Notes: generated from the sequence alone by a model not told the origin. Shown: positions 44,185 through 64,000, counted from the first letter of the stretch. The stretch: DNA of 64,000 bases from a bacterium (GCA_963662285.2 CAXXMV010000008.1:992001-1056000); one strand, 5' to 3'. Numbers and translations: made by a program.

Positions 44185-44263
44185 TTTTCTTCTCCCAGTT
44201 ACTATTTGATTGTCTCAACATGCAAAATTATAGGGACTGAATATTTACATCTTTTATTCTGAT

Positions 44264-47220: not shown

Positions 47221-50200
47221 CCTCTGGCGTTGGAGTCGGTAATGGTTCCGGCGTTTTTGTTGGCGTTGGAGTAGGCCAGTCTTCAATAGTCGGAGTCTGA
47301 GTCGGCTTTGGCTGTGATTCATCAACAAGTCCACTGCCCTGCGCTATATAAGGAAGAGCATAATTAGAACCGTAAATAGTACCTTGATCAGGCGACAACG
47401 TTCGGGAAAAAGCAAGATGGAAATCATCTTCCGAATCACTATTGATTCGATAAAAGCCCTCGATAGTTAATCCGTTATTTGATACTTTGCATCGGGTATC
47501 AATTATAACGGTATCTGGATTGTAACCTTCCAGAAGATCGGGATTATTATCATCTTCCAGCAATTCCCAATAATACTTATTAACGCCTGACTCATAATTG
47601 TTATCGAGCGTCGCATTGAGCCTCAATGCGTTATGATAGGCTTTTCCGTTCATCAATCCACTGAACCAGGAGATGCGGAAACTGCTTGTAAAGAATCCCA
47701 ATTGACTGCTACTGCAACCTACTCCAAAACCATAGTAATACTGTTGTTGATTCATGTTTTTGAAATTTGAAAATCGGGCAGTCATTTCCCATTCTTTTGA
47801 ACCATTGGGTGTAGAACTTGTACTAAATAAATAAGCGGTGCCCAGTGTAACTGCATCATCTTCCGCTTGTGGAGTCCAGACGCGATATGCCCCATCAATC
47901 AGTCCAGCCCTGAGATCACGCTGTGGATTATAAAGCCAAGAGTAAACAGAATCTGATTCAGTACTCGGAGCGGAGCGAATAGATTCTGAGGGAAGAATAA
48001 CTTGTCCATTATCATTCATTTGCCCTGAAGAGAAATCATAATAGATGTCTCGTCCAACATTATCTTCATATTTGATCCAATCAACATCGCATATAAATGA
48101 ATCTTGAGGAATTTCAATCGAGAGCGTAGGTATTGGCGTTGGTTCTATCCCATCAGTCCTGGACACACGAAATCCATTGATGTTGCCCGTGTAGATAGGG
48201 CTGTCGCTGTTACGATACGCCGAACGACAGTCCCCGGCGTAGTTGCTCCAGATACCGCCACGAATAACCCTATAATTACCTGAGTTAGTAACTATGGGGT
48301 CGGTTATAGGCGTAGAAGGATAGTCACTATACCAATCCTGACACCACTCCCACACATTACCGCTCATGTCAAACAGGCCCCAAGGATTAGATAATTTCGT
48401 AGCTACTTCTTTGGCGCCATTGACGATGTTGTTACCGCTATACCAGGCGTAATCTTCGATTTGCGTATAGTTAGGATCATCTCCCCAATAAAAGCGTTCT
48501 GTCGTTCCCGCACGGCAGGCGTATTCCCACTCTGCCTCTGTGGGTAAACGAAACGTTCCCAGGCCCATCTGGTTCAGTTTAGTAATGAACTCCTGGCAAT
48601 CATTCCATGAGACATAATAAACCGGATAGTTTGGACCCACTCCATAATTTCTGGCAGGATTGTTTCCCATCACCGCTTCCCATTGGGCTTGAGTGATTTC
48701 ATACTTCCCAATGTAGAAATCATGCGTAAGAGTGACTTGATGCTGCGTCTCGTCAGAACCACGATTCCTCTCACTTGAAGGCGATCCCATCATAAACGTC
48801 CCCGCCGGGATCAAAACCATCTCCAGCGGTTTGGCGCCTTCGGGGAGGTTGGGGATGTTAACTGTGATACTTTCAATAACCAGCTTTGGTGTGGGCGTCG
48901 GTGGAACCGGAGTATTGGTGAAAGTCGGCGTAGTGGTATTGGTCGGCTTTGGTTCATTCTCATAAGTCCTGCACAAACGAAACCCACTTCCACTGTACGT
49001 GCTGACAGGGTTCTCGTAGTCGTTACGAACCGCCGAACGACAGTACCTAGCCATGTTGTACCAGCTGCCGCCCCGAAGAACCCTATAATTACCTGAGTTA
49101 GTAATAATGGGATCGATCTTAGGCGTGGAGGAATAGCCGCTATACGTATCTTGACACCACTCATATACGTTGCCGATCATGTCAAACAAACCCCAGGGAT
49201 TTGGCAATTTAGTAGCTACTTCTTTGGAGCCATTGACGCTGTTGTTACCGGTATACCAGGCGTAATCTTCGATTTGCGTATAGTTAGGATCATCTCCCCA
49301 ATAAAAGCGTTCTGTAGTTCCCGCACGGCAGGCGTATTCCCACTCTGCCTCTGTGGGTAGACGAAATGTTCCTTGGCTCATCTGGTTCAGTTTAGTAATG
49401 AACTTCTGACAATCGTTCCATAAGACTTGTTCAACTGGATTATTTGGCTTTCCACTAAAATATGAGGGATTGTTTCCCATCACCGCTTCCCATTGCGCTT
49501 GAGTCACTTCATATTTCCCAATGTAGAAATCCTGCGTAAGAGTGACTTGATGCTGCGTCTCGTCAGAATTACGATCCTGCTCACTTGAAGGCGATCCCAT
49601 CATAAACGTCCCTGCTGGTATCAACACCATCTCCAGCGGTTTGGCGCCTTCGGGGAGATTGGGGATGTCAACGGTGATGATTTCTATATCTATCGTAGGA
49701 GTGGGCGTCGGTGGAACCTGGGTGTTGGTAGGCATCGGCGTGGGGGTTTTGGTCGGAGTTGGCATTGGCGTATTAGTAGGTACAACAGGCGTTGGCGTTG
49801 GTTCTATCTCAGCAGTTCTGGAGATACGAAACCCAACGTAGTAGTACGTGTAGTCAGGGTAGACGTTGATACGATCCGCCGAACGACATTGCCAGGCGTC
49901 GTTGCACCAGCTGCCGCCGCGAAGAACCCTAAAGTTACCTGAGTTAGTGACAACAGGATCGATCTCAGGCGTGGAGGAATAGCCGCTATACGTATCCTGA
50001 CACCACTCATTCACGTTTCCGCTCATGTCAAACAAACCCCAGGGATTTGGCAATTTCGTACCAACCTCTTTGGTTCCAGATGGACTGTTGTTGCCGGAAT
50101 ACCAAGCGTAGTCATTGATCTGTGAATAATAGAGATCATCTCCCCAATAAAAGCGTTCTGTAGTTCCCGCACGGCAGGCGTACTCCCACTCTGCCTCTGT

Positions 50201-50596
50201 GGGAAGGTGGAACGTTCCCAGATCCATCTGGTTCAGTTTAGCAATGAATTCCAGGCAATCGTTCCATGGGACTTGTTCAACCGGATTGTTTGGTTTTCCA
50301 CTATAATATGAAGGATTGTTTCCCATCACCGCTTCCCATTGTGCTTGAGTCACTTCATATTTCCCCATATAAAAGGATTTGCTGATTGTTACCTGGTGCT
50401 GTGGGCCTTCATCGGAATATCGATCTTGTTCGCTATCCGGGCTTCCCATAGTAAAACTCCCCGCCGGGATCAAAACCATCTCCAGCGGTTTGGCGCCTTC
50501 GGGGAGGTTGGGGAGATCGATGGTGATGGTATCTTGAGCAATTGCTCCACAAATAAATTGGCAAAATATCAAAACGGTCAATAATATTGCTCGCAT
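44264..50596 (-). CDS. Giant secreted protein: three tandem FGE-sulfatase/CLec modules, Pro/Thr linkers, inactive clan CD domain, two shared C-terminal domains
   Basis: Signal peptide MRAILLTVLIFCQFICGAIAQ (ATG 50596 after GGAGA); three copies of IPAGxFxMGSP...YE[VI]TQAQW...LPTEAEWEYACRAGT...GLFDMxGNVxEWC...RGG.W...GFR. Confidence 0.88.
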   Translation of the reverse strand: MRAILLTVLIFCQFICGAIAQDTITIDLPNLPEGAKPLEMVLIPAGSFTMGSPDSEQDRYSDEGPQHQVTISKSFYMGKYEVTQAQWEAVMGNNPSYYSGKPNNPVEQVPWNDCLEFIAKLNQMDLGTFHLPTEAEWEYACRAGTTERFYWGDDLYYSQINDYAWYSGNNSPSGTKEVGTKLPNPWGLFDMSGNVNEWCQDTYSGYSSTPEIDPVVTNSGNFRVLRGGSWCNDAWQCRSADRINVYPDYTYYYVGFRISRTAEIEPTPTPVVPTNTPMPTPTKTPTPMPTNTQVPPTPTPTIDIEIITVDIPNLPEGAKPLEMVLIPAGTFMMGSPSSEQDRNSDETQHQVTLTQDFYIGKYEVTQAQWEAVMGNNPSYFSGKPNNPVEQVLWNDCQKFITKLNQMSQGTFRLPTEAEWEYACRAGTTERFYWGDDPNYTQIEDYAWYTGNNSVNGSKEVATKLPNPWGLFDMIGNVYEWCQDTYSGYSSTPKIDPIITNSGNYRVLRGGSWYNMARYCRSAVRNDYENPVSTYSGSGFRLCRTYENEPKPTNTTTPTFTNTPVPPTPTPKLVIESITVNIPNLPEGAKPLEMVLIPAGTFMMGSPSSERNRGSDETQHQVTLTHDFYIGKYEITQAQWEAVMGNNPARNYGVGPNYPVYYVSWNDCQEFITKLNQMGLGTFRLPTEAEWEYACRAGTTERFYWGDDPNYTQIEDYAWYSGNNIVNGAKEVATKLSNPWGLFDMSGNVWEWCQDWYSDYPSTPITDPIVTNSGNYRVIRGGIWSNYAGDCRSAYRNSDSPIYTGNINGFRVSRTDGIEPTPIPTLSIEIPQDSFICDVDWIKYEDNVGRDIYYDFSSGQMNDNGQVILPSESIRSAPSTESDSVYSWLYNPQRDLRAGLIDGAYRVWTPQAEDDAVTLGTAYLFSTSSTPNGSKEWEMTARFSNFKNMNQQQYYYGFGVGCSSSQLGFFTSSFRISWFSGLMNGKAYHNALRLNATLDNNYESGVNKYYWELLEDDNNPDLLEGYNPDTVIIDTRCKVSNNGLTIEGFYRINSDSEDDFHLAFSRTLSPDQGTIYGSNYALPYIAQGSGLVDESQPKPTQTPTIEDWPTPTPTKTPEPLPTPTPEVTSNEPGVHITTKEILRRCSGKSVSFQVIVEGLNGFNDKVRLQLKEIPSDFDARIFPNSVVPPSRATLILTPKSDAGIFDNADGYSVEELVIQALTPKSKSVEETAYINILPRGAMILKDPVPREPYQIDLRSTSKGEETVGQTVKIKGQIYNNPAIRYITVSALRPGEFAPEIHPNVEVSKRGGYFDTEFEIRHSDQLVLDSNDAPWKIEAFYKSGTRDNPFNAVSEPLYLRVGASNPIAGKRSSRQLNMIASTDGDQSKIFCGQVIIVGGAQGKTISTNAIYNLTSSLYENLIFERRFDIESVQYLAPVPVDPSIGQRASNQSLAAAISNASMADYLLLYLVGDGDNGFFDLSSNESLTGDSLRSLLDERLQDATKHTLLIIDTHQAGVIKENFTTQANLEVIASTGSSEDSIAIFSVSDEGQPFSFSDLFFDGLMRGKTIRDSLAYSRKHLRRIQEPNIQQIPVPLENDLSEPFASLVLGTAYTPENEPMADNLPPRIEEVPDSMKILRGGTLHLKVKIRDEEEEDKDSSGEDVILSVRITEFGTSISYEIPATYLPDSDELDIHVENFPIEPFGENASNGQYTLSMLVQDNTDNSTAPAITSIDVIAPMQTYEFGESGLAESGWAEIPGGFSGAIPGRISMQGFNNPSIIPSSQDQKGMAIQVEPGQVAFVYATTPIQTNGSPILLRAMMRSTSQNAAIWCVGLKGDLSKTEQVDGSLTLTNAMTASAFLAQEKRNILLYNPIGEEPVTPVIQVQGNGDSATTVWIDRVEIYEIDPTKSYPSELFTMIETQPNSQTAQTSFQPDAVYEFDGASQWLEIPGGFEGANPGSIDLVDFGNNYNILPSSLDRKGLAVSMDKDELALIFSALPISVENEPVLMRMKVQASSSNVSNWLIGLKGNVATGENVDGSKGYNYLSQSYDYSNSEKTIILLYEPDSGTLITPGIQTTNKSGNGQAILYIDRMEIYKLKSGLYYPGSLFNGE
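48167..48262 (-). repeat. DGR-like variable repeat VR-C (internal, third CLec module)
   Basis: CGT GGC GGT ATC TGG AGC AAC TAC GCC GGG GAC TGT CGT TCG GCG TAT CGT AAC AGC GAC AGC CCT ATC TAC ACG GGC AAC ATC AAT GGA TTT CGT; 13 of 13 variable codons are NNC. Confidence 0.75.
48977..49075 (-). repeat. DGR-like variable repeat VR-B (internal, one extra codon)
   Basis: CGG GGC GGC AGC TGG TAC AAC ATG GCT AGG TAC TGT CGT TCG GCG GTT CGT AAC GAC TAC GAG AAC CCT GTC AGC ACG TAC AGT GGA AGT GGG TTT CGT; 10 of 13 NNC. Confidence 0.68.
49826..49921 (-). repeat. DGR-like variable repeat VR-A (internal, first CLec module)
   Basis: CGC GGC GGC AGC TGG TGC AAC GAC GCC TGG CAA TGT CGT TCG GCG GAT CGT ATC AAC GTC TAC CCT GAC TAC ACG TAC TAC TAC GTT GGG TTT CGT; 12 of 13 NNC. 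Confidence 0.75.
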
Positions 50597-50636
50597 ATTT
50601 ATTCTCCACAATTAATTCAAAAATTATTTTCAATGT

Positions 50637-53600
50637 CTAATTTGAAAACAGTTCACCGGCAAATGCTTTGCCCGGTTCTAAGGAATAGATTTCCATCTTA
50701 TCAATATAAATAGAATTCTTCAGGGCGTTTATCGGGCTTGCGACTTGAATGGCTGGCGTCATCCATTCTCCTTCGTCGGGTTCGTATAACAAAATGATTG
50801 TTTTTTCCCGTCCAGCGCTGTTTGAGACGTTGGCCCATTGCCGGAATCCCAGCGAGCCATCTATCCCGGCGCCCGTTATGAGGTTCCCTTTTAAGCCAAC
50901 CAACCATAATGAAGCATCCGGCGTAACTGACTGAACTCTTACCTTAATCAGATAAGGATAGCCAGTGTATTGCAATGATTGCTCCGAGAAGGCGAAAGCA
51001 ACCTGCCCGGATTGCACGGTGAAAGCCAATCCCCGACGATCATCGCTGGAAAAAAGCAGGTTGTCTTCATAGGGAAAATCAACTGGCGTAATAGAACCTT
51101 CCGGCGCTCCGGTAAAATCGCTCTGCGCTTTGCGCCAATTCATGTCCTGAAGAGTCTTTTGGGAGAAATCGTATTTGATGAAAGGTTCAGGATCGTTAAT
51201 CATCAACTGGCTTTCCGCTACATTCATGTATGAAGAGAATAATTCGGAGGGATAAGAAAGATTGTCATCAATTTCGTATAGCTCCACCCGATCAATAAGA
51301 ACAGTGGTCACTCCATCCATATCCAATCCGGCTACCTGAATTAAAGGCGTAATGGATTCGTTTTCAACGGGGTGATATAAAGCAATTAATTTTCGCTCCC
51401 CGCTGGATAGCACGGAAGAATGTGAATTAGTGATTAAAGACTGAGATTCGTCTACATCAATCAATGTATTAAAATCTCCTTTCAATGCTGTCAGCCATAC
51501 AGCCGCATGTGGAGAGTTGGAGCGCATGGTCGCTCGAATCAAAACAGTTTTCCCTTTGGTCGGGAAAGATTGCATTGCATGAACAAGAACCACCTGATTT
51601 CGTTTAACGCTTATCGCCAGACCTTTCTTATCATGGCTGGATGGAATGAGAGAATCATCAGTTTTAAAATCAATACAATAGGCGGCGCCGGGCTGCGCTC
51701 CTCCAAATCCTCCATTGATAATATTCCATCCGGAATCATTAGGATTATCCTGCTCGAATTCATCCTTCCTAGCAGGTCCAACCACTTCTATAGAAGTAAT
51801 CGCCGGCGCCGTTGAATTACCGGTATTGTCCTGAACCAACATGTTTAATGTATACTGCCCATTTGAGGCATTAGGTCCGAAAAGTTTTTCGGGGAAATTT
51901 TCTTCTAAGATTTCAAATTCGTCATCTTTAATAAACCGGGCGCTTACATCATGGTTTATCGATGTTCCATGCTGAGTAATGCGAACGTTGAGAAGAACGT
52001 CTTCGCCATTACTGACATCTTCATCATCACGTTCTTCATCACGTATTCGTGCTTTTAATTTCAAGGTTTCACCGCGGACAATTTGAATGGTCGACGGGAT
52101 ATCGATAATGCGCGGGGGAAGATTGTCTTCCAAGGGCTTGCCCTGGGGGACATAGGCGGAGCCAAGCACTAGTGAAGCAAAAGGCTCTTTGAGTTCGCCT
52201 TCTAACGGAACGGGAATCTGAAATATGTTAGGTTCTTGAATACGGCGCAAATGAATACGGGCGTATTTAAGGGATTCTTTAACATTTTCCCCTCTTAAAA
52301 GTGCATCAAAAAAGAGATCCGAAAAAGAAAACGGTTGCCCCTCATCGGTTCTGCCAAAAATTGCTTTACTGTCTTGGGTGGAACCGGTACTCGCAATCAT
52401 TTCAAAGTTGAGTTCATCAGGCATGCTTTCACGCATTATACCCGCTTGAGGAGCATCAAGAATTACGAGCGTATATTTACTTTTATCCTGGATTCGTGAA
52501 CGCAACAAATTCTTAAGTATTCCACCATTAATAAAATCAGCTTTTGAAGCAAATTGAAAGAAACCTCCATCTTCAGATCCAACAAGATATAGAATTAAAT
52601 AGTTAGCATCTTGTGAATCTGAAATTGCTTGCTCTAAAGCTTCATATGATGATATTACACCAACGGAAGGATCAACATCACTAGTAGGCGCCAGATAATG
52701 AATCGATTCTTCATCAAAACGCCTTTCATCAATTAAATTGTGATAGAGAGGAGTTGTAAGCATCTCAATAGATTTCGTATTAACTTCCAATCCACCAACT
52801 CCGCCAACAATGATAACATGACCCGAAAAAATATGGGATCCATCGCCCGTAGAAGTAACAACATTCAAATATCGATTCCGCTGTTTTGCTGATAGAGCAG
52901 GATTTTCCGAGCCGACTTTTAAGTACAACGGATTACTCGCCGCGCGAAAAGGATTATCCCAAGTTGTCCCTTTGTAAAAAGCTTCAATCTTCCAGGGTGT
53001 ATCGTTGTTATTGAGCACTAAATGACTATCTTTTTCAACAAGAAATTCCGTAACGAAATTGCCTCCACGCTTAGAAATTTCTACTTCATCATCGATAATG
53101 GGAACAGATTCTCCCGGTCGTAATGCAGAAACAGTCAACCAACGAATTCCGGGATTATCGTGAATCTCTCCTCGGATAACGACTTTATCTCCAATCCTTT
53201 CCCTATTTCTGGATTCTGTTCGTAAATCGATAAAAAACGGTTCACGCGGAACGGGAGAATTATAAAGAGGCGCCCCATAAGGCAATAGATGTAAATAAGC
53301 AATTATTTCTTCAACTTTATCGCTGCCTGATAGAGCTTGAATTAGAAAGGAATCAACGAGAGGGATATCTCCGCTAATTCCATTAAAAATAGTCTTGTCT
53401 CGTGGAGAGATAATTAAGGTAGATTGATTATTTGGAACAAACTTTTGATGCGAAAACTGTGCATCAAAACCATCGGGCAAATCCCTAACCTGGAGACGAA
53501 CCTCTTCGTTAAATCCATTAAATCCCTCAACGATGACCTGAAAAGTGACGGTTCCTCCATTCGTCCGCTGAAGAATTTCTCTAGTCGTTATTCTTATTCC

Positions 53601-56600: not shown

Positions 56601-57803
56601 AGAGATTGATGTTTGGATGCCTATATTGTTGTTCTGAATAATATTATTAATTAATTCACCACTTGATGTGGTAATATTAATGCCAATTTTCCCATTGTAA
56701 CTAATTATACTGCCATTGGAACTCAGGGCATTTGATATTCCATTATTTGTATTATAAGTAATCTCACTACTGGTTAATTCGGCAATAAAAGCGGAAGCAA
56801 TTCCATTCCACTTGTTTCCACTAATAATACTATTTTCGATAATCGCTGATGAGTTTGATCCATAATAGGAACCAATCCCGTCAGCGTCATTATCAAGTAT
56901 TCTGGAATTATTTTTTACAATAACATATCCGCCGCCATACTCAGAGCAATCGCATATTCCATGCCCGGGAAAGGCGCCTCCATTAATCGTGTTGCTTATT
57001 ACACAATTATCCACTGTTATTTTTGTTGCATAAATTCCATACCACCCATTGCCCGCTATCTGACAATTTCTGGCATTGACAGTACTCCTCCATCCATTTA
57101 TTCCTGCTCTACCATCCGTGGAATTATTAAGAATTTGACAATTCTCGATAGTCAAGACGCCTTCCCATAGATAAATGCCATCTTTCGTATTTTTTTCAAT
57201 CAGGCTATCTTTGATATCCAGATTAAGGCTCTTTTCTAATTGAATTCCAGTTTGGTTATTGGAAATAATAAGATCAGACAAGGTAGAATTAACCTTCAAA
57301 TGCAATCCAAACTCTTTATTTTCATTTATAGTCAGATTGCTGAATGAAGGATTCCCGCTATTAACAGTTATACCATTAATACCATAATAAATCTGACAAT
57401 TTTTCAAGGAAATATTTTCACCGTAAAAAATCAATCCATACCAATCCCCTTTTACCGGTGACGTGGAAGAAGAAGTAAATACAATTGGCGAGGTTTCCGT
57501 ACCTTGCGCTATCAGCGATCCATTATCGACGATTATTTCTATGCGCGAGGTATGTACACCGCCGATTTGAGCATCTACATTCGCATCGCATTCTATTCGC
57601 GTTCCCGGAAGAATAGTCAATTCGCCCGAACTGGTGACAGTCACATCACCCTTCAATTGCACAACGCCCGACCAGGTTTCCTCACCGGAAATTTCACCAT
57701 AGGTTGTAAGTGAATATGAAGTTTGAGAAAAGGAAAAGGAAAAATAACACATTAGAAGAAAAATATATTTATTACGAGTGTAATAGATATTGATATACTT
57801 CAT
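50637..57803 (-). CDS. Giant secreted protein: right-handed beta-helix, two copies of an unknown domain, CBM4/9-like domain, one FGE/CLec module, inactive clan CD domain, two shared C-terminal domains
   Basis: GDVTV...LTILPGT...FTS...GDWYG and NN..GI parallel beta-helix repeats; NLIPNPSF...WYDDVSL; RLPTEAEWEYACRA; shared C-terminal ~990 aa architecture. Confidence 0.85.
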   Translation of the reverse strand: MKYINIYYTRNKYIFLLMCYFSFSFSQTSYSLTTYGEISGEETWSGVVQLKGDVTVTSSGELTILPGTRIECDANVDAQIGGVHTSRIEIIVDNGSLIAQGTETSPIVFTSSSTSPVKGDWYGLIFYGENISLKNCQIYYGINGITVNSGNPSFSNLTINENKEFGLHLKVNSTLSDLIISNNQTGIQLEKSLNLDIKDSLIEKNTKDGIYLWEGVLTIENCQILNNSTDGRAGINGWRSTVNARNCQIAGNGWYGIYATKITVDNCVISNTINGGAFPGHGICDCSEYGGGYVIVKNNSRILDNDADGIGSYYGSNSSAIIENSIISGNKWNGIASAFIAELTSSEITYNTNNGISNALSSNGSIISYNGKIGINITTSSGELINNIIQNNNIGIQTSISTDTYSWIYFNDVFDNHSYELKNNGAAAIIANVNYWGEPTTTELNQEISNLTKIYDSRDDSSVGQVILNGWKNTSTNPTPTPTNTPYPPTATFTNTPNPTNTYTPVPTHKPPTPTFTYTETPVPTNTPTVITTPTPWRPYISIEVPPKMIYVTDDGQSTENLMDKTDYDAPSDRALMIHWNIGGFLSQPKAIQLNVAGTGTGQVRLAANLDPLTTSFEWREGNPLIFDESVKGGPQFNKSYRFTVIVNLTIGSTSSFSSGVIDFSDIPTPTPTFTNTPIPTPTYTPTLTPTNTIPPVPLNIPVDTVVVTDHLQSTEKLNGGYDIDVAHDRALAVRWNYSKSDAANFHIYVKIDNGFPQFLGQTKSGSVYYFEWRIGNPFLTDSFVDGPQYKKLYKFLVYAITSDGAYLLTSLDPVLFWDANEILPTPTYTTTPKPTDTPRPTPTDAPKPTPTNTPKPTPTNTPKPTPTDTPKPTPTDTPNPPTATSTPFIAVNLIPNPSFNIASGSLPMGWENPGSGGNLIWDRIIAHSFSSSVKIAGSSVQNYSLHWSTIDLIEFDRSKQYLLTFWYLWDKPALSGDVAEIGIRAYNDEGDDIGLTTYYPNGLAGDWRYAQFIIPKNSMPESAKYVKLYFGRFMGSTESVDSILWYDDVSLRIMGDHESLPPTLTPYPPTPTNTFTHTPTSTNSPTPTNTLTPTDTPRPTNTPTHTPIPSPTPIMLIDVPLNLYEGSKPLELVYIPSGTFLMGSPSYEKGRDPNEGPQHEVTISRPFYMSKYEITQEQWFAVMNVKPSVYGGSNYPVDAVSWEDCNHFIEELNKLNIGNFRLPTEAEWEYACRADSTERFYWGEDESNTEINNYAWNWFNSRHSPQTVGGKSPNDWGLYDMSGNQNEWCADWYTEYNSSSVIDPQGPNEGENRVVRGGFFDSIGGCRSAARDSANPKIGIETISFRIVRDFTFKPTPIDMPTPIDTPPPDIPTPDMPTPTPEEPDDPIFEPTPDETSKEPGIRITTREILQRTNGGTVTFQVIVEGFNGFNEEVRLQVRDLPDGFDAQFSHQKFVPNNQSTLIISPRDKTIFNGISGDIPLVDSFLIQALSGSDKVEEIIAYLHLLPYGAPLYNSPVPREPFFIDLRTESRNRERIGDKVVIRGEIHDNPGIRWLTVSALRPGESVPIIDDEVEISKRGGNFVTEFLVEKDSHLVLNNNDTPWKIEAFYKGTTWDNPFRAASNPLYLKVGSENPALSAKQRNRYLNVVTSTGDGSHIFSGHVIIVGGVGGLEVNTKSIEMLTTPLYHNLIDERRFDEESIHYLAPTSDVDPSVGVISSYEALEQAISDSQDANYLILYLVGSEDGGFFQFASKADFINGGILKNLLRSRIQDKSKYTLVILDAPQAGIMRESMPDELNFEMIASTGSTQDSKAIFGRTDEGQPFSFSDLFFDALLRGENVKESLKYARIHLRRIQEPNIFQIPVPLEGELKEPFASLVLGSAYVPQGKPLEDNLPPRIIDIPSTIQIVRGETLKLKARIRDEERDDEDVSNGEDVLLNVRITQHGTSINHDVSARFIKDDEFEILEENFPEKLFGPNASNGQYTLNMLVQDNTGNSTAPAITSIEVVGPARKDEFEQDNPNDSGWNIINGGFGGAQPGAAYCIDFKTDDSLIPSSHDKKGLAISVKRNQVVLVHAMQSFPTKGKTVLIRATMRSNSPHAAVWLTALKGDFNTLIDVDESQSLITNSHSSVLSSGERKLIALYHPVENESITPLIQVAGLDMDGVTTVLIDRVELYEIDDNLSYPSELFSSYMNVAESQLMINDPEPFIKYDFSQKTLQDMNWRKAQSDFTGAPEGSITPVDFPYEDNLLFSSDDRRGLAFTVQSGQVAFAFSEQSLQYTGYPYLIKVRVQSVTPDASLWLVGLKGNLITGAGIDGSLGFRQWANVSNSAGREKTIILLYEPDEGEWMTPAIQVASPINALKNSIYIDKMEIYSLEPGKAFAGELFSN
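55165..55315 (-). repeat. Coding tandem repeat, ~24 bp unit (TPKPTPT[ND])
   Basis: TPKPTDTPRPTPTDAPKPTPTNTPKPTPTNTPKPTPTDTPKPTPTDTP linker. Confidence 0.8.
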
Positions 57804-57828
57804 TTTTTGGCTCCCAATTCATAGATGA

Positions 57829-60800
57829 TTATTTCTTCGACATAAAAATAGTTCCAGGATATGCTTGCCCAGGTTCTAAGGAATATATTTGTAAACTATC
57901 GATTCGTATAATATTTTGAGATGCTTCTGATTTACTGGCAACCTGTAGAGCGGGGGTCATCCAGGAACTGGAATCCGGTTCATATAAAAGAAACATGGTT
58001 TGTTCTTTTCCCGTACAATTCGCGACGTTAGCCCATTGCCGGAATCCCAGCGATCCATCAACACCCTCGTTTAAATTGAGGTTTCCTTTGAGTCCCACTA
58101 ACCATAGTGAAGCATCCGGCGCGTCTGACTGTACTTGCATTTTAAATAGATAGGGATAGCCCGTATAAGGGAGAGATTCCTTTGAATAAGTAAAAGCAAC
58201 CTGCCCGGATTGCACAGAGAATGCCAGCCCCCTGCGATCATTGCTTGAAGGCAGCAGGTTAGCGTCATGACTGAAATCACTCGCGAAAACCATGCCTGGA
58301 GATTCTTCAGTAAATCCTCCTGGAATTTCCTGCCATTTCATCGCTTGAAGATTCGGTTTAGAAAATTCATACTCAACAATCGGATTAAGATCGTTTACAA
58401 CTTGTGTAGAACCTGAATCTCCCGGAAGAGTCGAGAATAACTCTGAGGGATATACGCTATCTTGATCGATTTGATAAGCCTCAATCCGGTCAATCAGAAC
58501 TGTAGTAACGCCTTCTGCATCCAACCCAGCAACTTGAACAACTGGAGTTACTAATTCCTCTCCTACGGGATGATATAGGACGACTAGATTTTGTTCCATA
58601 GTGGATATCACAGATGAGTTTGACGATGTTATTAGAGATTGAGAGTTATCCACATTCACCCCGGAACTCAAGTTCCCTTTTAAGGCCGTCAACCATACGC
58701 CGGCATTAGGGGAATTGGCGCGCATAGAGGCGCGAATGAGCAAAGGCTTCCCTTCTGTCGCTATCGGTTCCAAAGCAAAGAACATGGTGATCTGTTTTTT
58801 CTGGATGGTGACAGCCAGCGCTTTTTTATCTTCACTGGAAGGAACCAAGGAAGGATCGAAACTAAAATCAAGGAATGATACTGTTCCGGGAGCATTACCT
58901 GAGAAGCCGCCCGGGATTTCCGCCCAACCATTAGCGCCGATATCATTTTGATCAAACTCGTAAGTTTTGATTGGATCGGGTTTCAAAACTGGATCAGCAG
59001 ACGATGGAACGACATCGATTGAAGTTATCGCCGGAGCGGTTGAATTATCAGAGTTATCCTGTACCAGTAGACTTAATGAATATTGCCCGTTCGGCGCATA
59101 ATCTCCAAACAATGAATTTGGGAAATTATCAATATTAAGATGAAACTTATCAGTACTGCTATCATAAGTAATATATTCTAATTCAGATATCTCTTTACTG
59201 ACATTAGTTTCAAGTTGAGAAATGCGAACAGATAGAACCACATCTTCGCCGCTGCTGTCTTTATCATGAGTCTCTTCATCTCGAATAGCGGCTTCCAGGA
59301 CAAGTGGTTCTCCACGAACATGCTCAATAGATGCAGGAACGCCTTCTATAGCTGGAGGAAGGTTGTCGTTTATACTTTCATCTTCTTCAACAAAGGCGGA
59401 ACCGATAATCAACGAAGCGAATTCTTCCTTCAAATCTGATTCCAACGGTTCCGGGACTTGCGCAATGTTCGGTTCCTGAATGCGCCTTAATTGATTCCGG
59501 GCATAAGCCAGAGATTTATAAACTGTTTTGCCTGATAAAATTGCATCGAAAAATAAATCTGAGAACGAGAAGGGTTGCCCCTGGCTGTCAGAGAAAATCG
59601 CAGGATGCTGATCTCCCGTGCTGGCGATTATTTCCAGTCCCTTGTGGGTAGGCAATCGATCACGAAGGAATCCCGCCTGTTGTATATCGATAATGACCAG
59701 CGTACGCTTATTGGCGTCTCTACAGCGAGGAGATAGAATTTCGGCTAATGTTGGACCATTAAGCGGCGTACCTGAAGCGAAATAGAACACGCCTCTTTCT
59801 CCCGAACCGATTAAATACAGGAGGAGAAACTCCGCTTCAGACGCCTGGTCAACTGCATCGATTAATCCTTGCTCGCTGGATTCAACATCCAACTGTGGAT
59901 TAGAACTATGAGACAGGAGAGTAACCGAGTCATCAGTCAGGCGTCTTTCGGAAACCAGGCTTTTGTAAATCGAGCCAGTCAGTTTTTCTATTTGACCTGC
60001 ACTGATGTCATCCCCGTCTTTGCCGCCCACAATAATTACATGTCCTGTATAATTTTCCAGACTTTGAGATTGCACCACCGAACGGTATTTCACTTTTCCA
60101 GGGAGATTAGCCCTGATAGAACCTACGGGAATGAACAATGGTTCGCTCTGTCCTCTCAGAGGAAGATAGTTTAATCCGATATCAAAGGAGGCGTCGATCC
60201 GCCACTGGACGTCATCAGGATCATTTATCAATTGATCAGAGTTTTCCACCAGAAATTCCGCTTCAAAATATCCACCACGATCAGAGACAGTTACTTTCTC
60301 AGTCACAGGATTGCTATCTCCCGGTCGGAGAGCACGGACGAATACATCAGATATCCCCGTATAGCTGCGAATCTGGCCTTTTACTACTACCGTTGACCCA
60401 GCAGTTTCATCCAGTTTGGATGGAGAAGCCAGATAGATGGGAATCGGTTCTCGATAGACGACATCGCCGTCAAGCGTCGTGTAACCGCGGGTAAGAATTT
60501 CGATTGACGCTTCCTCGGAATCACTCTTTGAGGGAGAACTGCCTTTGATAGAGAATTTTTCCACCAATCCTCTTGATGTAATGGAATCGAAAATATTATT
60601 GTCACTATTGGGCGTAAGGATCAACCGGGATACCGCGGGAGGAACCACTGGGTTCGGAACAAATCTCACGTCGAAACCATTTGGAGCATTAGGCGTGTAT
60701 AAATCCACTTTCTCATTAAATCCATTAACACCCTCAACATTGACGGTAAAAACAACGCTTTTGCCATTGCAACGGCGTAATAATTCAAGAGTTGTTATTT

Positions 60801-62745
60801 CCAATCCAGGTTCATTGGATATCTCCGTTGGCGTTGGAGTAGGCAATACAGGCGTTGGCGTCGGTAATGGTTCCGCTGGCGTAGGAGTTAATGTTGGCGT
60901 GGGAGTATCAGTCGGAGTTGATATAGGTGTATCAGTGGGTAAAACAGGCGTTGGCGTAGGTAGAATCCCATCAGTCCTACATATACGAAAACCACTGCCG
61001 TAGTACCCGAAGTCGGGATCGCTCCCGTAACGGCTCGCGGAACGACAGTACCTGGCATCGTAGCTCCAGCAGCCGCCCCGAAGAACCCTATAAATACCTG
61101 AGTTAGTAACAACGGGATCGATTACAGGAGTAGAAGGATAGTCACTATACCAATCCTGACACCACTCCCACACATTACCACTCATGTCAAACAAACCCCA
61201 GCGATTTGGCAATTTCGTAGCTACTTCTTTGGTTATATAGCCACTATTACCGTCATACCAAGCGTAGTCATTGATCTGTGAATCATTGGGATCATCTCCC
61301 CAATAAAAGCGTTCTGTCGTTCCTGCACGGCAGGCGTACTCCCACTCCGCTTCTGTGGGTAAACGAAATGTTCCTTGGCCCATCTGGTTCAGTTTAGTAA
61401 TGAACTCCTGGCAATCGTTCCATGATACTTGTTCAACTGGATTGTTTGGCATTTCACTAAAATAAGAGGGATTGTTTCCCATCACCGCTTCCCATTGGGC
61501 TTGAGTCACTTCATACTTCCCAATGTAGAAATCCTGTGTAAGAGTGACTTGATGCTGCGTCTCGTCAGAACCACGATCTTTATCACTTGACGGCGATCCC
61601 ATCATAAAGGTTCCTGCAGTGATGAACACCATCTCCAGCGGTTTGGCGCCTTCGGGGAGATCGGGAATATCGACTGTGATAGTTTCTATCTCCAGCGTCG
61701 GCGTGGGGGTTTTTGTCGGAGTTGGCATTGGCGTATTAGTAGGTGCAACAGGCTTTGTCTCATCATAAGTCCTGCACAAACGAAAACCCCTGCTGACGTT
61801 CATGTAGTAGGGGCCAAGTGCGTCACGGAACGCAGAACGGCAGTACCAGCTTTCGCTGCCCCAGCTGCCGCCCCGGTACACCCTGGTACTACCTGAATTT
61901 TCACCTTTTGGATCAACTATTGATCCCCGGTTGCTTGGTTCTTCCCACCAATCATTACACCATTCCCACACGTTGCCATGCATATCATATAGGTTCCAGG
62001 GATTGGGCTGTTTCAAGCCCACTTCTTTCGCGCCTGCTTCATTGCCGCTATAGGTATTATTTCCCTTCCACCACATATATTGATCGCCAATTTCTCTATA
62101 TGAATCTCCAAAATCAGGTATTTCCAAAGCGTTACCAAATGAAAAACGGGTTCGGGTTCCCGCCCGGCAAGCGTATTCCCACTCCGCTTCGGTTGGCAAC
62201 CGATACCCATTGGCGGTCCAATCAGTAGTCCAGTCCGATTCGTTATAAACCGGCGTTAATCCCTGTTGCTTACTAAGTTCGTTACAGAAACTCGCTGCAT
62301 TAATCCAAGTTACTTGTTCAACCGGATTGTCCGGTTTGTTTTGGAAACCGGATGGATTGTCGTCCATAACCGCTTGATATTGCGCCTGAGTAACTTCATA
62401 TCGCCCGATATAGAAATATTTTGTAAGAGTAACTTGATGAGGCGCCCACTCTAAATATTCATCTCTCCCCCGCTCATCCGCTGGCGATCCCATAGTAAAT
62501 GTCCCCGCCGGGATTAAAACCATTTCCAGCGGTTTGGCGTCTTCGGGGAGATTGGGGATATTGGGGATATCGACGATATCAGTATCTATTGTTTTTATAA
62601 TGAATGGTTTGAAATAGGCGGTGTGAGATGTAGCAGTATCTATTGTATTTATAGTGAATGGTTTATAATTGGCTGTATGAGTTGATGGATACACGCTTAG
62701 TGCGATTGTAAAAAACAGGAAAGTGGAAATAAAACAATGGCGCAT
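57829..62745 (-). CDS. Giant secreted protein: two FGE-sulfatase/CLec modules, Pro/Thr linkers, inactive clan CD domain, two shared C-terminal domains
   Basis: Start moved to ATG 62745 (MRHCFISTFLFFTIALSVYPS) after AGGAGA; two CLec modules; LYLIGSG...IIDIQQAG; GW.EIPGGF C-terminal domains. Confidence 0.87.
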   Translation of the reverse strand: MRHCFISTFLFFTIALSVYPSTHTANYKPFTINTIDTATSHTAYFKPFIIKTIDTDIVDIPNIPNLPEDAKPLEMVLIPAGTFTMGSPADERGRDEYLEWAPHQVTLTKYFYIGRYEVTQAQYQAVMDDNPSGFQNKPDNPVEQVTWINAASFCNELSKQQGLTPVYNESDWTTDWTANGYRLPTEAEWEYACRAGTRTRFSFGNALEIPDFGDSYREIGDQYMWWKGNNTYSGNEAGAKEVGLKQPNPWNLYDMHGNVWEWCNDWWEEPSNRGSIVDPKGENSGSTRVYRGGSWGSESWYCRSAFRDALGPYYMNVSRGFRLCRTYDETKPVAPTNTPMPTPTKTPTPTLEIETITVDIPDLPEGAKPLEMVFITAGTFMMGSPSSDKDRGSDETQHQVTLTQDFYIGKYEVTQAQWEAVMGNNPSYFSEMPNNPVEQVSWNDCQEFITKLNQMGQGTFRLPTEAEWEYACRAGTTERFYWGDDPNDSQINDYAWYDGNSGYITKEVATKLPNRWGLFDMSGNVWEWCQDWYSDYPSTPVIDPVVTNSGIYRVLRGGCWSYDARYCRSASRYGSDPDFGYYGSGFRICRTDGILPTPTPVLPTDTPISTPTDTPTPTLTPTPAEPLPTPTPVLPTPTPTEISNEPGLEITTLELLRRCNGKSVVFTVNVEGVNGFNEKVDLYTPNAPNGFDVRFVPNPVVPPAVSRLILTPNSDNNIFDSITSRGLVEKFSIKGSSPSKSDSEEASIEILTRGYTTLDGDVVYREPIPIYLASPSKLDETAGSTVVVKGQIRSYTGISDVFVRALRPGDSNPVTEKVTVSDRGGYFEAEFLVENSDQLINDPDDVQWRIDASFDIGLNYLPLRGQSEPLFIPVGSIRANLPGKVKYRSVVQSQSLENYTGHVIIVGGKDGDDISAGQIEKLTGSIYKSLVSERRLTDDSVTLLSHSSNPQLDVESSEQGLIDAVDQASEAEFLLLYLIGSGERGVFYFASGTPLNGPTLAEILSPRCRDANKRTLVIIDIQQAGFLRDRLPTHKGLEIIASTGDQHPAIFSDSQGQPFSFSDLFFDAILSGKTVYKSLAYARNQLRRIQEPNIAQVPEPLESDLKEEFASLIIGSAFVEEDESINDNLPPAIEGVPASIEHVRGEPLVLEAAIRDEETHDKDSSGEDVVLSVRISQLETNVSKEISELEYITYDSSTDKFHLNIDNFPNSLFGDYAPNGQYSLSLLVQDNSDNSTAPAITSIDVVPSSADPVLKPDPIKTYEFDQNDIGANGWAEIPGGFSGNAPGTVSFLDFSFDPSLVPSSEDKKALAVTIQKKQITMFFALEPIATEGKPLLIRASMRANSPNAGVWLTALKGNLSSGVNVDNSQSLITSSNSSVISTMEQNLVVLYHPVGEELVTPVVQVAGLDAEGVTTVLIDRIEAYQIDQDSVYPSELFSTLPGDSGSTQVVNDLNPIVEYEFSKPNLQAMKWQEIPGGFTEESPGMVFASDFSHDANLLPSSNDRRGLAFSVQSGQVAFTYSKESLPYTGYPYLFKMQVQSDAPDASLWLVGLKGNLNLNEGVDGSLGFRQWANVANCTGKEQTMFLLYEPDSSSWMTPALQVASKSEASQNIIRIDSLQIYSLEPGQAYPGTIFMSKK
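60985..61080 (-). repeat. DGR-like variable repeat VR-D (internal)
   Basis: CGG GGC GGC TGC TGG AGC TAC GAT GCC AGG TAC TGT CGT TCC GCG AGC CGT TAC GGG AGC GAT CCC GAC TTC GGG TAC TAC GGC AGT GGT TTT CGT; 10 of 13 NNC. Confidence 0.65.
61780..61875 (-). repeat. DGR-like variable repeat VR-E (internal, most diverged)
   Basis: CGG GGC GGC AGC TGG GGC AGC GAA AGC TGG TAC TGC CGT TCT GCG TTC CGT GAC GCA CTT GGC CCC TAC TAC ATG AAC GTC AGC AGG GGT TTT CGT; 10 of 13 NNC. Confidence 0.55.
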
Positions 62746-62856
62746 GATAGCGGTTCTCCTTGAAAATAATTTTCCTATAATCGTTACAAAAAAAATCACG
62801 GCAGTGACTTTTGACGCAGTAAAATGGAAAAAGGCAAAGGATAAAAGCTAACAGGT

Positions 62857-63960
62857 CTACTGAGTTCTGGATAGACGAAATCCAAAGTAGTAGCTCGCGT
62901 AGTCAGGTCCGTTGCCGCCGCGATCCGCCGAACGGCAGCTATCGGCGCTGTAGTTCCATACACCGCCGCGAAGCACTCTATAGTTACCAGAGTTAGTAAC
63001 AACGGGATCGATCTCAGGCGTGGAGGAATAGCCGCTATACGTATCCTGACACCATTCATACACGTTGCCGATCATATCAAACAAGTTCCAGGGATTTGGC
63101 AATTTCGTACCTACTTCTTTGGCGCCATTGACGATGTTGTTACCGCCATACCAAGCGTAATCTTCGATTTGCGTATAGTTAGGATCATCTCCCCAATAAA
63201 AGCGTTCTGTCGTTCCTGCACGGCAGGCGTATTCCCACTCCGCCTCTGTGGGTAGACGAAACGTTCCTAGATCCATCTGGTTCAGTTTAGAAATGAATTC
63301 CAGGCAATCATTCCATGAGACTTGTTCAACCGGATTGTTTGGATTACCAATGAAATATGAGGGATTGTTTCCCATAACCGCTTCCCATTGGGCTTGAGTC
63401 ACTTCATATTTCCCCATATAAAAGGATTTGCTGATTGTTACCTGGTGCTGTGGGCCTTCATCGGAACCTCGATCTTGTTCGCTATCCGGGCTTCCCATAG
63501 TAAAACTCCCCGCCGGGATCAATACCATCTCCAGCGGTTTGGCGCCTTGGGGAAGGTTTGGTAAAGGAATCGTAAAGTCTTCTATAAAATGGTCATCCGC
63601 AGTTACCGCAACGCCAAACAGAGTATTGAATACGCCTGGCATATCCTTCCCTGCATCCCAAATAACATGCTTGTTTTCTCCTGGAACCACTAAACCAACA
63701 TCGCCCGACAAACTTTCAGGGATTATGTTATATGTCGCTCCATTGTTATCCGAGAACCTTATGGAAATCATCAATTGTGAACTGTCCGGATCATCAACAT
63801 CATAATAGACATCCAGCAACTTTGATCCATCCGTCCGCTGTTCCGCACGAACGTTGCTGACAAACGGCGGTTCAGCGGCAAAAGCGCAGAATGACACAAA
63901 AAGGAAACCTATCAATAAACTAGTTCTCAAATACATCAAGCGTGATCCGGCCATAGTCAT
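62857..63960 (-). CDS. Secreted FGE-sulfatase/CLec protein with N-terminal Ig-like domain; canonical DGR-target architecture
   Basis: Signal peptide; VSNVRAEQRTDGSKLLDVYYD...KHVIWDAGKD domain; one CLec module ending GFRLSRTQ-stop. Confidence 0.9.
   Translation of the reverse strand: MTMAGSRLMYLRTSLLIGFLFVSFCAFAAEPPFVSNVRAEQRTDGSKLLDVYYDVDDPDSSQLMISIRFSDNNGATYNIIPESLSGDVGLVVPGENKHVIWDAGKDMPGVFNTLFGVAVTADDHFIEDFTIPLPNLPQGAKPLEMVLIPAGSFTMGSPDSEQDRGSDEGPQHQVTISKSFYMGKYEVTQAQWEAVMGNNPSYFIGNPNNPVEQVSWNDCLEFISKLNQMDLGTFRLPTEAEWEYACRAGTTERFYWGDDPNYTQIEDYAWYGGNNIVNGAKEVGTKLPNPWNLFDMIGNVYEWCQDTYSGYSSTPEIDPVVTNSGNYRVLRGGVWNYSADSCRSADRGGNGPDYASYYFGFRLSRTQ
62875..62970 (-). repeat. DGR-like variable repeat VR-F (3'-terminal)
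   Basis: CGC GGC GGT GTA TGG AAC TAC AGC GCC GAT AGC TGC CGT TCG GCG GAT CGC GGC GGC AAC GGA CCT GAC TAC GCG AGC TAC TAC TTT GGA TTT CGT; 12 of 13 NNC; five codons before the stop. Confidence 0.72.
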
Positions 63961-64000
63961 GCTCCAAATGTGAATTAAATATATCCAACCTCTAAAAGTA

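Follow-up and report, generated by a model that had tools for sequence, protein, structure and literature searches.

The DNA analysed here is a 64,000-nt stretch of a bacterial genome (GCA_963662285.2, CAXXMV010000008.1:992001-1056000). It is termed the window, and coordinates given without a contig name are counted over its whole length. The genome has 8 contigs totalling 7.29 Mb and is 92.5% complete. The minus strand of the window carries five large genes in head-to-tail order (Table 1), and four of these encode proteins with FGE-sulfatase (FGE/CLec) modules. Three of the four proteins contain, at the ends of their modules, six short segments displaying the signature of variable repeats (VRs) of a diversity-generating retroelement (DGR). 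These segments, VR1 to VR6, are probably genuine DGR recipient sites, most of which no longer appear to be served.

Pfam assigns one, two, one and three FGE-sulfatase domains to the products of 62857-63960, 57829-62799, 50637-57803 and 44264-50611, respectively. In the three VR-bearing proteins PF03781 gives three matches (44264-50611, E = 1.6e-145), two matches (57829-62799, E = 1.7e-96) and one match (62857-63960, E = 7.9e-50; 9e-50 in a separate Pfam run). The three tandem modules of 44264-50611 are at 49814-50500, 48965-49651 and 48155-48841, and the two modules of 57829-62799 are at 61768-62544 and 60973-61653. Pro/Thr-rich linkers join the modules. As read from the translations, all four FGE proteins appear to begin with a signal peptide.

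The VRs are the last 32 codons (33 in VR2) of six of the seven FGE modules, and each ends 3-4 codons ahead of the end of the Pfam FGE-sulfatase domain. Each extends from CGN GGC GG. to GGN TTT CGT. Three are in 44264-50611, two are in 57829-62799, and one is at the C-terminus of the 62857-63960 protein; the first five are thus internal and only the last is at a gene end. The 62857-63960 protein has the canonical layout of a DGR target. Its best solved relative is the DGR variable protein TvpA of Treponema denticola (2y3c, E = 6.2e-31).

Table 1. Genes, variable repeats and retroelement components in the window and on other contigs. A and non-A, positions that differ from the template repeat (TR) of contig C1 at adenines and at other bases; constant, A-free codons identical to the TR.
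Feature	Position	Strand	Remarks
Gene, 367 aa	62857..63960	-	open reading frame; signal-peptide-like N-terminus and one FGE/CLec domain, C-terminal end is VR6
Gene, 1656 aa, putatively secreted	57829..62799	-	two N-terminal FGE/CLec modules, Pro/Thr linkers, C-terminal scaffold
Gene, 2388-aa paralogue	50637..57803	-	Pfam Beta_helix, one FGE-sulfatase module (53754-54428), same scaffold
Gene, 2115 aa, putatively secreted	44264..50611	-	three N-terminal tandem FGE/CLec modules, then scaffold of ~1300 aa
Gene, 1436 aa, WD40 repeats	39874..44184	-	open reading frame
Scaffold paralogue, 1955 aa	25932..31799	+	scaffold 84-91% identical to 44264-50611; unrelated N-terminal 940 aa; no FGE module
VR1, internal	48167..48262	-	13/13 codons ending in C at the columns of the sequence-only reading; A 15/34, non-A 11/62; constant 6/15; possibly other or older template version
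VR2, internal, one extra codon	48977..49075	-	A 17/34, non-A 12/62 after removal of one codon; constant 11/15
VR3, internal	49826..49921	-	A 19/34, non-A 11/62; constant 8/15; 3′ boundary AGA ACT; possibly other or older template version
VR4, internal	60985..61080	-	A 21/34, non-A 6/62; constant 11/15, P = 0.045; 3′ boundary AGG ACT; second closest to C1 template
VR5, internal	61780..61875	-	A 21/34, non-A 7/62; constant 13/15
VR6	62875..62970	-	A 21/34, non-A 15/62; constant 6/15; 3′ boundary AGA ACT; appears most decayed relative to TR
Cognate target, 846 aa	C1:676.99-679.5 kb (L004:8986-11526)	-	GH10 E = 7.3e-87 and FGE-sulfatase E = 7e-52, C-terminal VR
Cognate VR	C1:~677.0-677.1 kb	-	compared with TR over 32 codons: A 24/34, non-A 0/62
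Avd, 115 aa	C1 cassette	-	NF033474 DivGenRetAVD 126.4 bits (cut-off 80); PF22296 bAvd E = 1.7e-22; only copy in genome
Reverse transcriptase, 377 aa	C1:675.4-676.5 kb	-	PF00078 87.5 bits (cut-off 29.6); between Avd and TR
TR, AAC-rich	C1:675.36-675.46 kb	-	overlaps 3′ end of reverse transcriptase gene
FGE gene with in-frame stop and undiversified TR-like AAC-rich tail	C1:279.0-279.9 kb (L003:7047-8102)	-	87.9% identical to TR over 99 nt
Other VR-like FGE tails	C8:271.7 kb, C8:270.9 kb, C6:788.8 kb, C1:444 kb		found by BLAST

Codon composition of the variable repeats

A previous interpretation of the window, made from its DNA alone (the sequence-only reading), had proposed the six VRs. Their positions on the minus strand were recovered here without change. 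The same is true of its count of codons ending in C (NNC) at 13 aligned AAC columns, 67/78, and of the rarity of C at codon positions 1 and 2, 3/156. When the 13 AAY/AAA codons of the actual TR on contig C1 (see below) are used as reference, 65/78 codons of the window VRs are NNC and 8/78 are NNT. In the remaining codons of the same four genes NNC accounts for 1224/6350 (19%, Fisher p = 2e-33), and C/(C+T) at codon ends is 0.35. Twenty-four other FGE tails of the genome, taken at the same ungapped columns, display 132/312 NNC, and this set includes the other VR-like tails. The NNC excess on which the sequence-only reading relied is therefore found against both the same genes and the other tails.

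Eleven of the 78 AAC-derived codons do not end in C. GGG in VR4 and GCA in VR5 are accounted for by AGG in the present TR, and the remaining 9/78 are close to the per-lineage synonymous divergence of the module bodies. VR2 displays three non-C third positions and a codon indel.

Among the five similar modules, the mean pairwise DNA identity is 72-97% in the body and 59-64% in the VR. The near-identical stretches that had been described in these five bodies are present locally, as exact common runs of 32-75 nt, but the whole module bodies are only 77-88% identical. A sixth module with a more diverged body had also been described; it is the one that carries VR5, and its body is 60-62% identical to the others.

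The retroelement on contig C1 and its fit to the window

No reverse transcriptase (RT), Avd or template is present in the window, in agreement with the sequence-only reading; the two RT matches of the genome, out of 6 candidates, and its single Avd match are elsewhere. To judge by its sequence, the RT at C8:1292 kb resembles a group II intron RT/maturase. The other RT is part of the one complete DGR of the genome, located on the minus strand of contig C1 at ~675-678 kb. The gene order is a target with glycoside hydrolase family 10 (GH10) and FGE domains, Avd, RT, TR and an RT-14-like RNA. It was by extending the search to the whole genome that this AAC-rich TR, next to a DGR RT and Avd as the sequence-only reading had envisaged, was found.

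The best NCBIfam match of the RT is to a group II intron RT (135 bits, below the cut-off of 300); the NCBIfam search yielded no DGR-RT model. The RT carries the sequence IGNLTSQ, which we take to be the DGR-typical I/LGxxxSQ motif. The RNA element directly behind the TR matches Rfam RT-14 over its whole length with 39.3 bits (gathering score 48.1, E = 6.5e-4), and it is the only RT-14-like match in the genome. Within their 32 codons the cognate VR and the TR differ at adenines only. One further difference is at the 3′ boundary, which is AGG ACT in the VR and AGT ACT in the TR. A DGR-type RT, an Avd and a TR/VR pair differing at adenines are all present in this genome. The window and the C1 cassette belong to separate contigs, and for either one the nearest contig end is over 570 kb away; therefore any action of the cassette on the window would be in trans and over a long distance. 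A search of genome contigs with the RT yielded three distant DGRs, in unrelated phyla.

In a comparison with the TR over 38 codons, mismatches are significantly enriched at adenines in all six window VRs (15-21/36 at A versus 10-21/78 at non-A, p = 1e-2 to 1e-6), a concentration that the sequence-only reading had predicted. The FGE module at 53754-54428 is without the DGR signature, with 5/13 NNC and mismatches at 22/36 A and 45/78 non-A (p = 0.45). The base spectrum at TR adenines is poor in C both in the six window VRs (A90 G64 T42 C8) and in the cognate VR (A10 G17 T7 C0). However, in no window VR are the mismatches to the TR confined to adenines, whereas those of the cognate VR are.

Constant codons were compared by protein-guided codon alignment of the window VR modules with the cognate target, using the 15 A-free codons of the TR, two of which are in the 5′ flank. 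In VR5 all 13 A-free codons from CGG to TGC are those of the TR, and the 3′ end, TTT CGT TTG TGC AGG ACT, is that of the cognate VR. The agreement of 13/15 constant codons compares with 47/91 (0.52) same-residue codons shared by the VR5 module body and the cognate target (P = 0.005). By its sequence, VR5 appears to be the strongest candidate among the six for a site that the C1 DGR serves now or served recently. VR4 (P = 0.045) and VR2 (P = 0.03) each have the TR codon at 11/15 positions, and VR1, VR3 and VR6, at 6-8/15, are no better than their bodies. VR4 and VR5 are alike at 10/12 constant codons versus 0.51 in their bodies. The flanks of VR2 are identical to those of the cognate VR (5′ AGG GTT CTT CGG GGC GGC AGC TGG, 3′ TTT CGT TTG TGC AGG ACT), and its interior misfits the TR.

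VR1, VR2 and VR3 have in common TGT, TCG, CCT, ACG and the last AAT-derived codon, and VR6 has some of these states. At the corresponding places the present TR has TGC, TCT, CCC, AGG and AGG. The sequence ACG AAC AAC AAC AAT GGT TTT CGT GTG is present in the TR of a relative, genome G011, whose RT is 63% identical. Because the 3′ run of VR1-3 is found in the G011 TR, this version of the template exists in the family, yet it is not in the present assembly. The misfits at 6-15/62 non-A positions and the states shared by VR1-3 bear out the earlier suggestion of more than one template, or of older events, to explain non-A differences.

Between modules, the identity of same-residue codons is 0.46-0.85 in the VR constant codons and 0.49-0.83 in the bodies. 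The constant codons are as diverged as the bodies, and therefore the six VRs were not all rewritten from one template since the modules diverged.

The 3′ boundary is AGG ACT in VR1, VR2, VR4 and VR5, as it is in the cognate VR and in the VRs of G011 and of a further relative, G032; in VR3 and VR6 it is AGA ACT. The TRs of all three genomes have AGT or AGC ACT at this place. The base that distinguishes AGG from AGT/AGC may thus be a functional VR/TR discriminator of the kind termed initiation of mutagenic homing (IMH). In G011, a relative of the same family, the locus C111:393-513 (L036) has a C-terminal FGE VR that differs from its TR at 16 adenines and one other base, which is the same AGG/AGT boundary position. 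A truncated TR-like copy is found ~200 nt downstream of the FGE gene with the C-terminal VR in G011. The ~100-nt DNA folds from the 3′ end of each window VR are weak and non-conserved (-4 to -9.5 kcal/mol) and give no support for a cruciform.

No further template was found in the 7.29 Mb by BLAST with the VRs and TRs, by the RT-14 model, or by a 31-nt block located downstream of the TR. BLAST with the VRs and TRs does find the TR, its VR, the six window VRs, three to four other VR-like FGE tails and one TR-like tail. The TR-like tail, at C1:279 kb, was considered as the missing template, but its non-A misfit to the window VRs, 11-18/66, is overall no better than that of the present TR, 6-15/62. 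The TRs of G011 and G032 were considered as sources as well. Overall they fit the window VRs no better, and for VR4 and VR5 the fit of these TRs and of the C1:279 kb tail is clearly worse.

Population data came from two runs of one sample, as contigs aligned to 44200-63999. For every one of the six VRs there is a contig that covers it with 0-1 differences among the differences listed; rare variants are dropped from such contigs. A second, slightly different strain was seen at 44264-46915 only, in contigs of run X2 (and a low-depth X1 contig), with 8, 6 and 32 differences in three pieces. When metagenome contigs were scanned for other alleles with the scaffold protein, 58 pattern matches came up, none of which tblastn confirmed, and a 37-nt exact stretch beside VR1 gave 0 matches in the metagenome scan. 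None of the 40 relatives searched belongs to the same genus.

Origin and present state of the repeats

The six stretches are probably genuine DGR recipient sites of this lineage that are now mostly relics. In the process proposed, template RNA would have been copied by an error-prone RT that randomizes adenines, and the cDNA would have replaced the VR (mutagenic retrohoming). The source would be the same DGR lineage as the intact C1 cassette (~675.3-678 kb), acting in trans from afar. At least two template versions would have been involved, one close to the present TR (VR5, VR4 and perhaps the flanks of VR2) and another outside the assembly (VR1, VR2, VR3 and VR6). Rewriting most likely ceased, VR5 and VR4 having perhaps been the last served. 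Ordinary mutation would now act on fixed, diverse binding heads, two or three per protein. Most VRs are read as relics because their constant codons are as diverged as the bodies, because the 9/78 non-C codons are of the order of the synonymous divergence of the bodies, and because VR2 has a codon indel. The sequence-only reading had proposed that a dispersed DGR diversifies, or once diversified, these modules. The DGR origin is upheld by the RT, Avd, TR, A-enrichment and NNC excess, but ongoing diversification is unsupported, as the sole assembled TR misfits all six VRs at non-A sites.

Several points weigh against the view that the VRs are mostly relics. Target assignment in PMC5758913 is by A-to-N differences to the TR only, with minor exceptions allowed. 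The same paper describes differences other than A-to-N in 86/372 DGRs (23%), with up to 11 in one target, and a DGR in which one target with seven non-A differences and an indel is found beside a clean target. Such features are described there mostly for a lineage that uses remote targets. By this published range VR4 and VR5 (6-7), and just about VR1 and VR3 (11), could be live; VR2 (12) is one above it and VR6 (15) is well outside. The 7 non-A changes of VR5 from CGG onward are all in A-containing codons; when all 15 constant codons are counted, the two of the 5′ flank included, the figures are 4/45 versus 7/28. Rather than decay, a template slightly unlike the present TR, or noncanonical mutagenesis, could be behind this pattern. 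In addition, all genes are intact, VR2 with its cognate-type flanks looks homing-competent, and a second TR or cassette may be in the unassembled part of a genome that is 92.5% complete.

The alternative that departs furthest from the above has no retroelement at all: the NNC loops would result from selection for Tyr, Asp, Ser, Asn and Gly together with gene conversion between modules. Some NNC excess is indeed present in other FGE tails (132/312, versus 19% in gene bodies), and the module bodies have a mosaic make-up in which runs of 32-75 nt are identical, suggesting conversion. Selection on residues, however, does not pick the C-ending synonym. The NNC excess does not come from such selection, because the C-ending synonym is chosen against the genes' own usage (C share 35%, compared with 65 NNC versus 8 NNT among the 78 variable codons). 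Moreover, a TR that exists in this genome has its AAC codons at the variable positions, C is scarce in the spectrum, as it is in that of the cognate VR, and the flanks match the TR codon for codon. This explanation is strongly disfavoured already and is extremely improbable. If a retroelement is accepted, all or most of the six VRs might still be live. Their source could be a second template in the unassembled 7% or in an unbinned element, whether or not an RT and Avd of its own accompany it, or else the C1 enzyme working with several templates. The constant-codon states that VR1-3 share and the present TR lacks, the same ACG...AAT 3′ half in the TR of a relative, the 13/13 NNC of VR1 and the incompleteness of the genome are all consistent with this. 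So is the apparently collapsed cassette at C1:279 kb (see below), which would mean that the genome once had more than one template. In Thiohalocapsa, some diversified VRs likewise had no perfect TR in the reference, and structural variants were the explanation given (PMC10907252). On the other hand, VR1, VR2 and VR3 differ from one another synonymously in the constant codons as much as their bodies do, VR2 has its codon indel and three non-C third positions, and the 7.29 Mb contain one RT of a DGR cassette, one Avd and one RT-14-like RNA. The 0-1 differences per VR in the population contigs also argue against live targets, although weakly, since these contigs are from two runs of one sample and drop rare variants. 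On balance, we consider it unlikely that most VRs are still live in this way.

A more restricted possibility is that VR5 and VR4 alone are current remote targets of the C1 DGR, the other four being relics. Noncanonical mutagenesis, or selection acting on the binding residues, would then account for their 6-7 non-A differences. The 13/13 A-free codons and cognate-type 3′ end of VR5 point in this direction, as do the 10/12 constant codons in which VR4 and VR5 agree (bodies 0.51) and an A-enrichment that is the strongest of the six (p = 1e-6 and 5e-6); published targets have up to 11 non-A differences (PMC5758913). Yet the cognate VR of the same element has 0/62 non-A changes, so that the RT does not look sloppy. 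The synonymous changes TGT and TCC in the constant codons of VR4 look like drift, and no strong hairpin is found behind either VR. This possibility is very unlikely. It is also conceivable, but quite unlikely, that one Avd-RT pair serves at least 10 dispersed CLec modules by means of several templates. In that case non-A changes and indels would be normal output, and the tandem modules would still be rewritten independently. If this were true, the proteins would be combinatorial two- and three-headed binders, a bacterial multivalent repertoire, and the imperfect fit to the TR would reflect template turnover and noncanonical mutagenesis. That the six VRs are DGR recipient sites which have mostly become relics is the interpretation retained here.

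Tandem internal CLec VRs, remote targets and remnant targets have been published (PMC5758913, PMC10907252, PMC4891356). PMC5758913 describes internal VRs, a target with three tandem FGE domains that all seem to be diversified, targets as long as 2697 aa, and remote targets at distances above 100 kb. In PMC10907252, CLec domains with VRs occur three in tandem and are diversified in trans; the paper also documents duplicated and degraded cassettes and VRs that lack a perfect reference TR. Remnant targets, and a remote target that fits the TR of another strain, are found in PMC4891356.

Four systems may be compared with the window. Treponema denticola has TvpA and up to seven remote FGE-type targets, with remnant targets in strains whose cassette is lost or changed (PMC4891356, PMC5758913). 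The CLec fold is of the same FGE-sulfatase type with the VR at the domain end, and the targets are far from the RT, as here. In one strain a remote VR fits the TR of another strain better (19/21 changes at adenines), which parallels an orphaned VR. Here, unlike in T. denticola, 5/6 VRs are internal, two or three per protein, at the N-terminal end of proteins of 1656-2115 aa, and the misfit to the resident TR is larger (6-15 non-A). DGR 4/5 of Thiohalocapsa PB-PSB1 (PMC10907252) resembles the present case in that there are several tandem CLec VRs per target, the RT and TR are at another locus, and duplicated, degraded cassettes and transposons are nearby. Its targets, however, are cytoplasmic vWA/MoxR conflict-system sensors with C-terminal CLec domains, whereas here signal-peptide-like N-termini are followed directly by CLec modules. 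The fit to the template is imperfect here, moreover, and the window VRs are candidate targets by sequence.

The triple-FGE target of PMC5758913 likewise has FGE modules in a tandem of three; in two the VR is internal, so that the IMH must be coding. This target belongs to a cassette with a matching TR, unlike the window VRs. The DGR of Bordetella phage BPP-1 (Mtd, avd, TR, brt; PMC5758913, PMC3240598) shares adenine-specific transfer from TR to VR, an Avd, a target with a CLec fold and a 3′ boundary element. In contrast to BPP-1, the cassette here is ordered target, avd, RT, TR, RNA element, its target belongs to the FGE type, and no clear hairpin is behind the VRs.

As it stands, the locus extends known DGR biology without changing it. 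One genome displays a graded series, from an adenine-only VR to VRs with 6-7 and VRs with 11-15 non-A differences, plus an apparently collapsed second cassette, and thus documents the fate of DGR targets over time. Strict A-only survey rules for remote targets would miss all six VRs despite their unmistakable codon scar. The locus also suggests that, in this little-known uncultivated lineage, very large secreted proteins can carry N-terminal stacks of two or three DGR-written lectin heads, and that such heads can be exchanged on a common scaffold. If the VRs were variable at the level of reads, this would be a natural system for multivalent, independently diversified binders.

Scaffolds, neighbouring genes and other retroelement traces

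Four scaffold paralogues are present in the window, with identities of 100, 91, 51 and 48%; the scaffold of 57829-62799 is 48% identical to that of 44264-50611. Relatives of the scaffold with 41-45% identity are found in one genome of the same order. In a large protein collection nothing further of similar scaffold length was found, save one weak match. The linker of the plus-strand paralogue at 25932-31799 is a six-fold Pro/Thr repeat. To judge from its unrelated N-terminal region, this paralogue appears to show recent swapping of binding heads on a common scaffold or stalk. The FGE proteins would thus be secreted or surface proteins in which two or three lectin-type binding heads, formerly tuned by a DGR, are placed on a common stalk.

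Pfam assigns no family to the scaffold apart from a weak Peptidase_C13 hint, below the cut-off in both 44264-50611 (E = 0.0039) and 25932-31799 (E = 1.2e-4). At the places where the His/Cys dyad of clan CD (legumain/C13-like) peptidases would be expected, the four paralogues read LVGxGx and D..QAG, with no His or Cys. A model of the scaffold (AF2, 4-row alignment) is of low confidence, with a mean pLDDT of 62.8. It suggests two Ig-like sandwiches followed by an alpha/beta domain. Foldseek with this model gave tandem Ig-like matches alone (TM 0.14-0.22), and no fold was assigned to the alpha/beta part.

Neighbouring genes at 23644-25704 (plus strand), 39874-44184 (minus strand) and 37852-39789 (minus strand) encode a caspase domain (Peptidase_C14, E = 2.6e-10), WD40 propellers and a weak PPC domain. 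The regions after the WD40 propellers contain H-G and C-Y-S-G motifs that are legumain- or caspase-like by eye. Taken together, the cluster gives the impression of encoding large protease-like proteins that are secreted or at the surface.

The cognate target of the C1 DGR, which is cleanly diversified, is a GH10 enzyme fused to a hypervariable lectin-type module. The terms "glycos", "hydrolase" and "xylan" are absent from the main text of PMC5758913; no wider literature search on GH10 targets was made.

The VR-like FGE tails at C8:270.2-271.8 kb (L007:5647-7812), C6:788 kb and C1:444 kb display 9-10/13 NNC and 11-16/62 non-A mismatches. They include a second two-module protein, whose last tail has its 3′ end and the first ~25 nt after the stop codon in common with the cognate target.

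About 150 nt beyond the TR-like tail at C1:279 kb is a copy of the 31-nt post-TR block (96.8% identity), the only other copy in the genome. This locus may be the remnant of a target-avd-RT-TR cassette in which recombination between VR and TR deleted avd and the RT. An open reading frame 2.5 kb from the tail is transposase-like by eye.

A conserved element is found behind the TR in all 7 loci from 6 genomes, with the core CGGGGCTGGTA..G...C.GAA.G..C.G (L002:1022-1167, minus strand; L003, L009, L010, L013, L014 and L015). RNAalifold predicts 15 base pairs for this element, with compensatory changes in 3. In cassettes where the TR is behind the RT, the element may act as the priming or spacer portion of the DGR RNA. 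The stretch of ~100 nt behind the RT-14-like element (C1:675.08-675.2 kb) is a palindromic dispersed repeat (GTCTGAATCTGGAT...ATCCTGATTCAGAC), which has dozens of copies in the genome. It forms an array at C3:413.5-414.4 kb, and some copies adjoin other FGE tails, e.g. at C6:788.9 kb.

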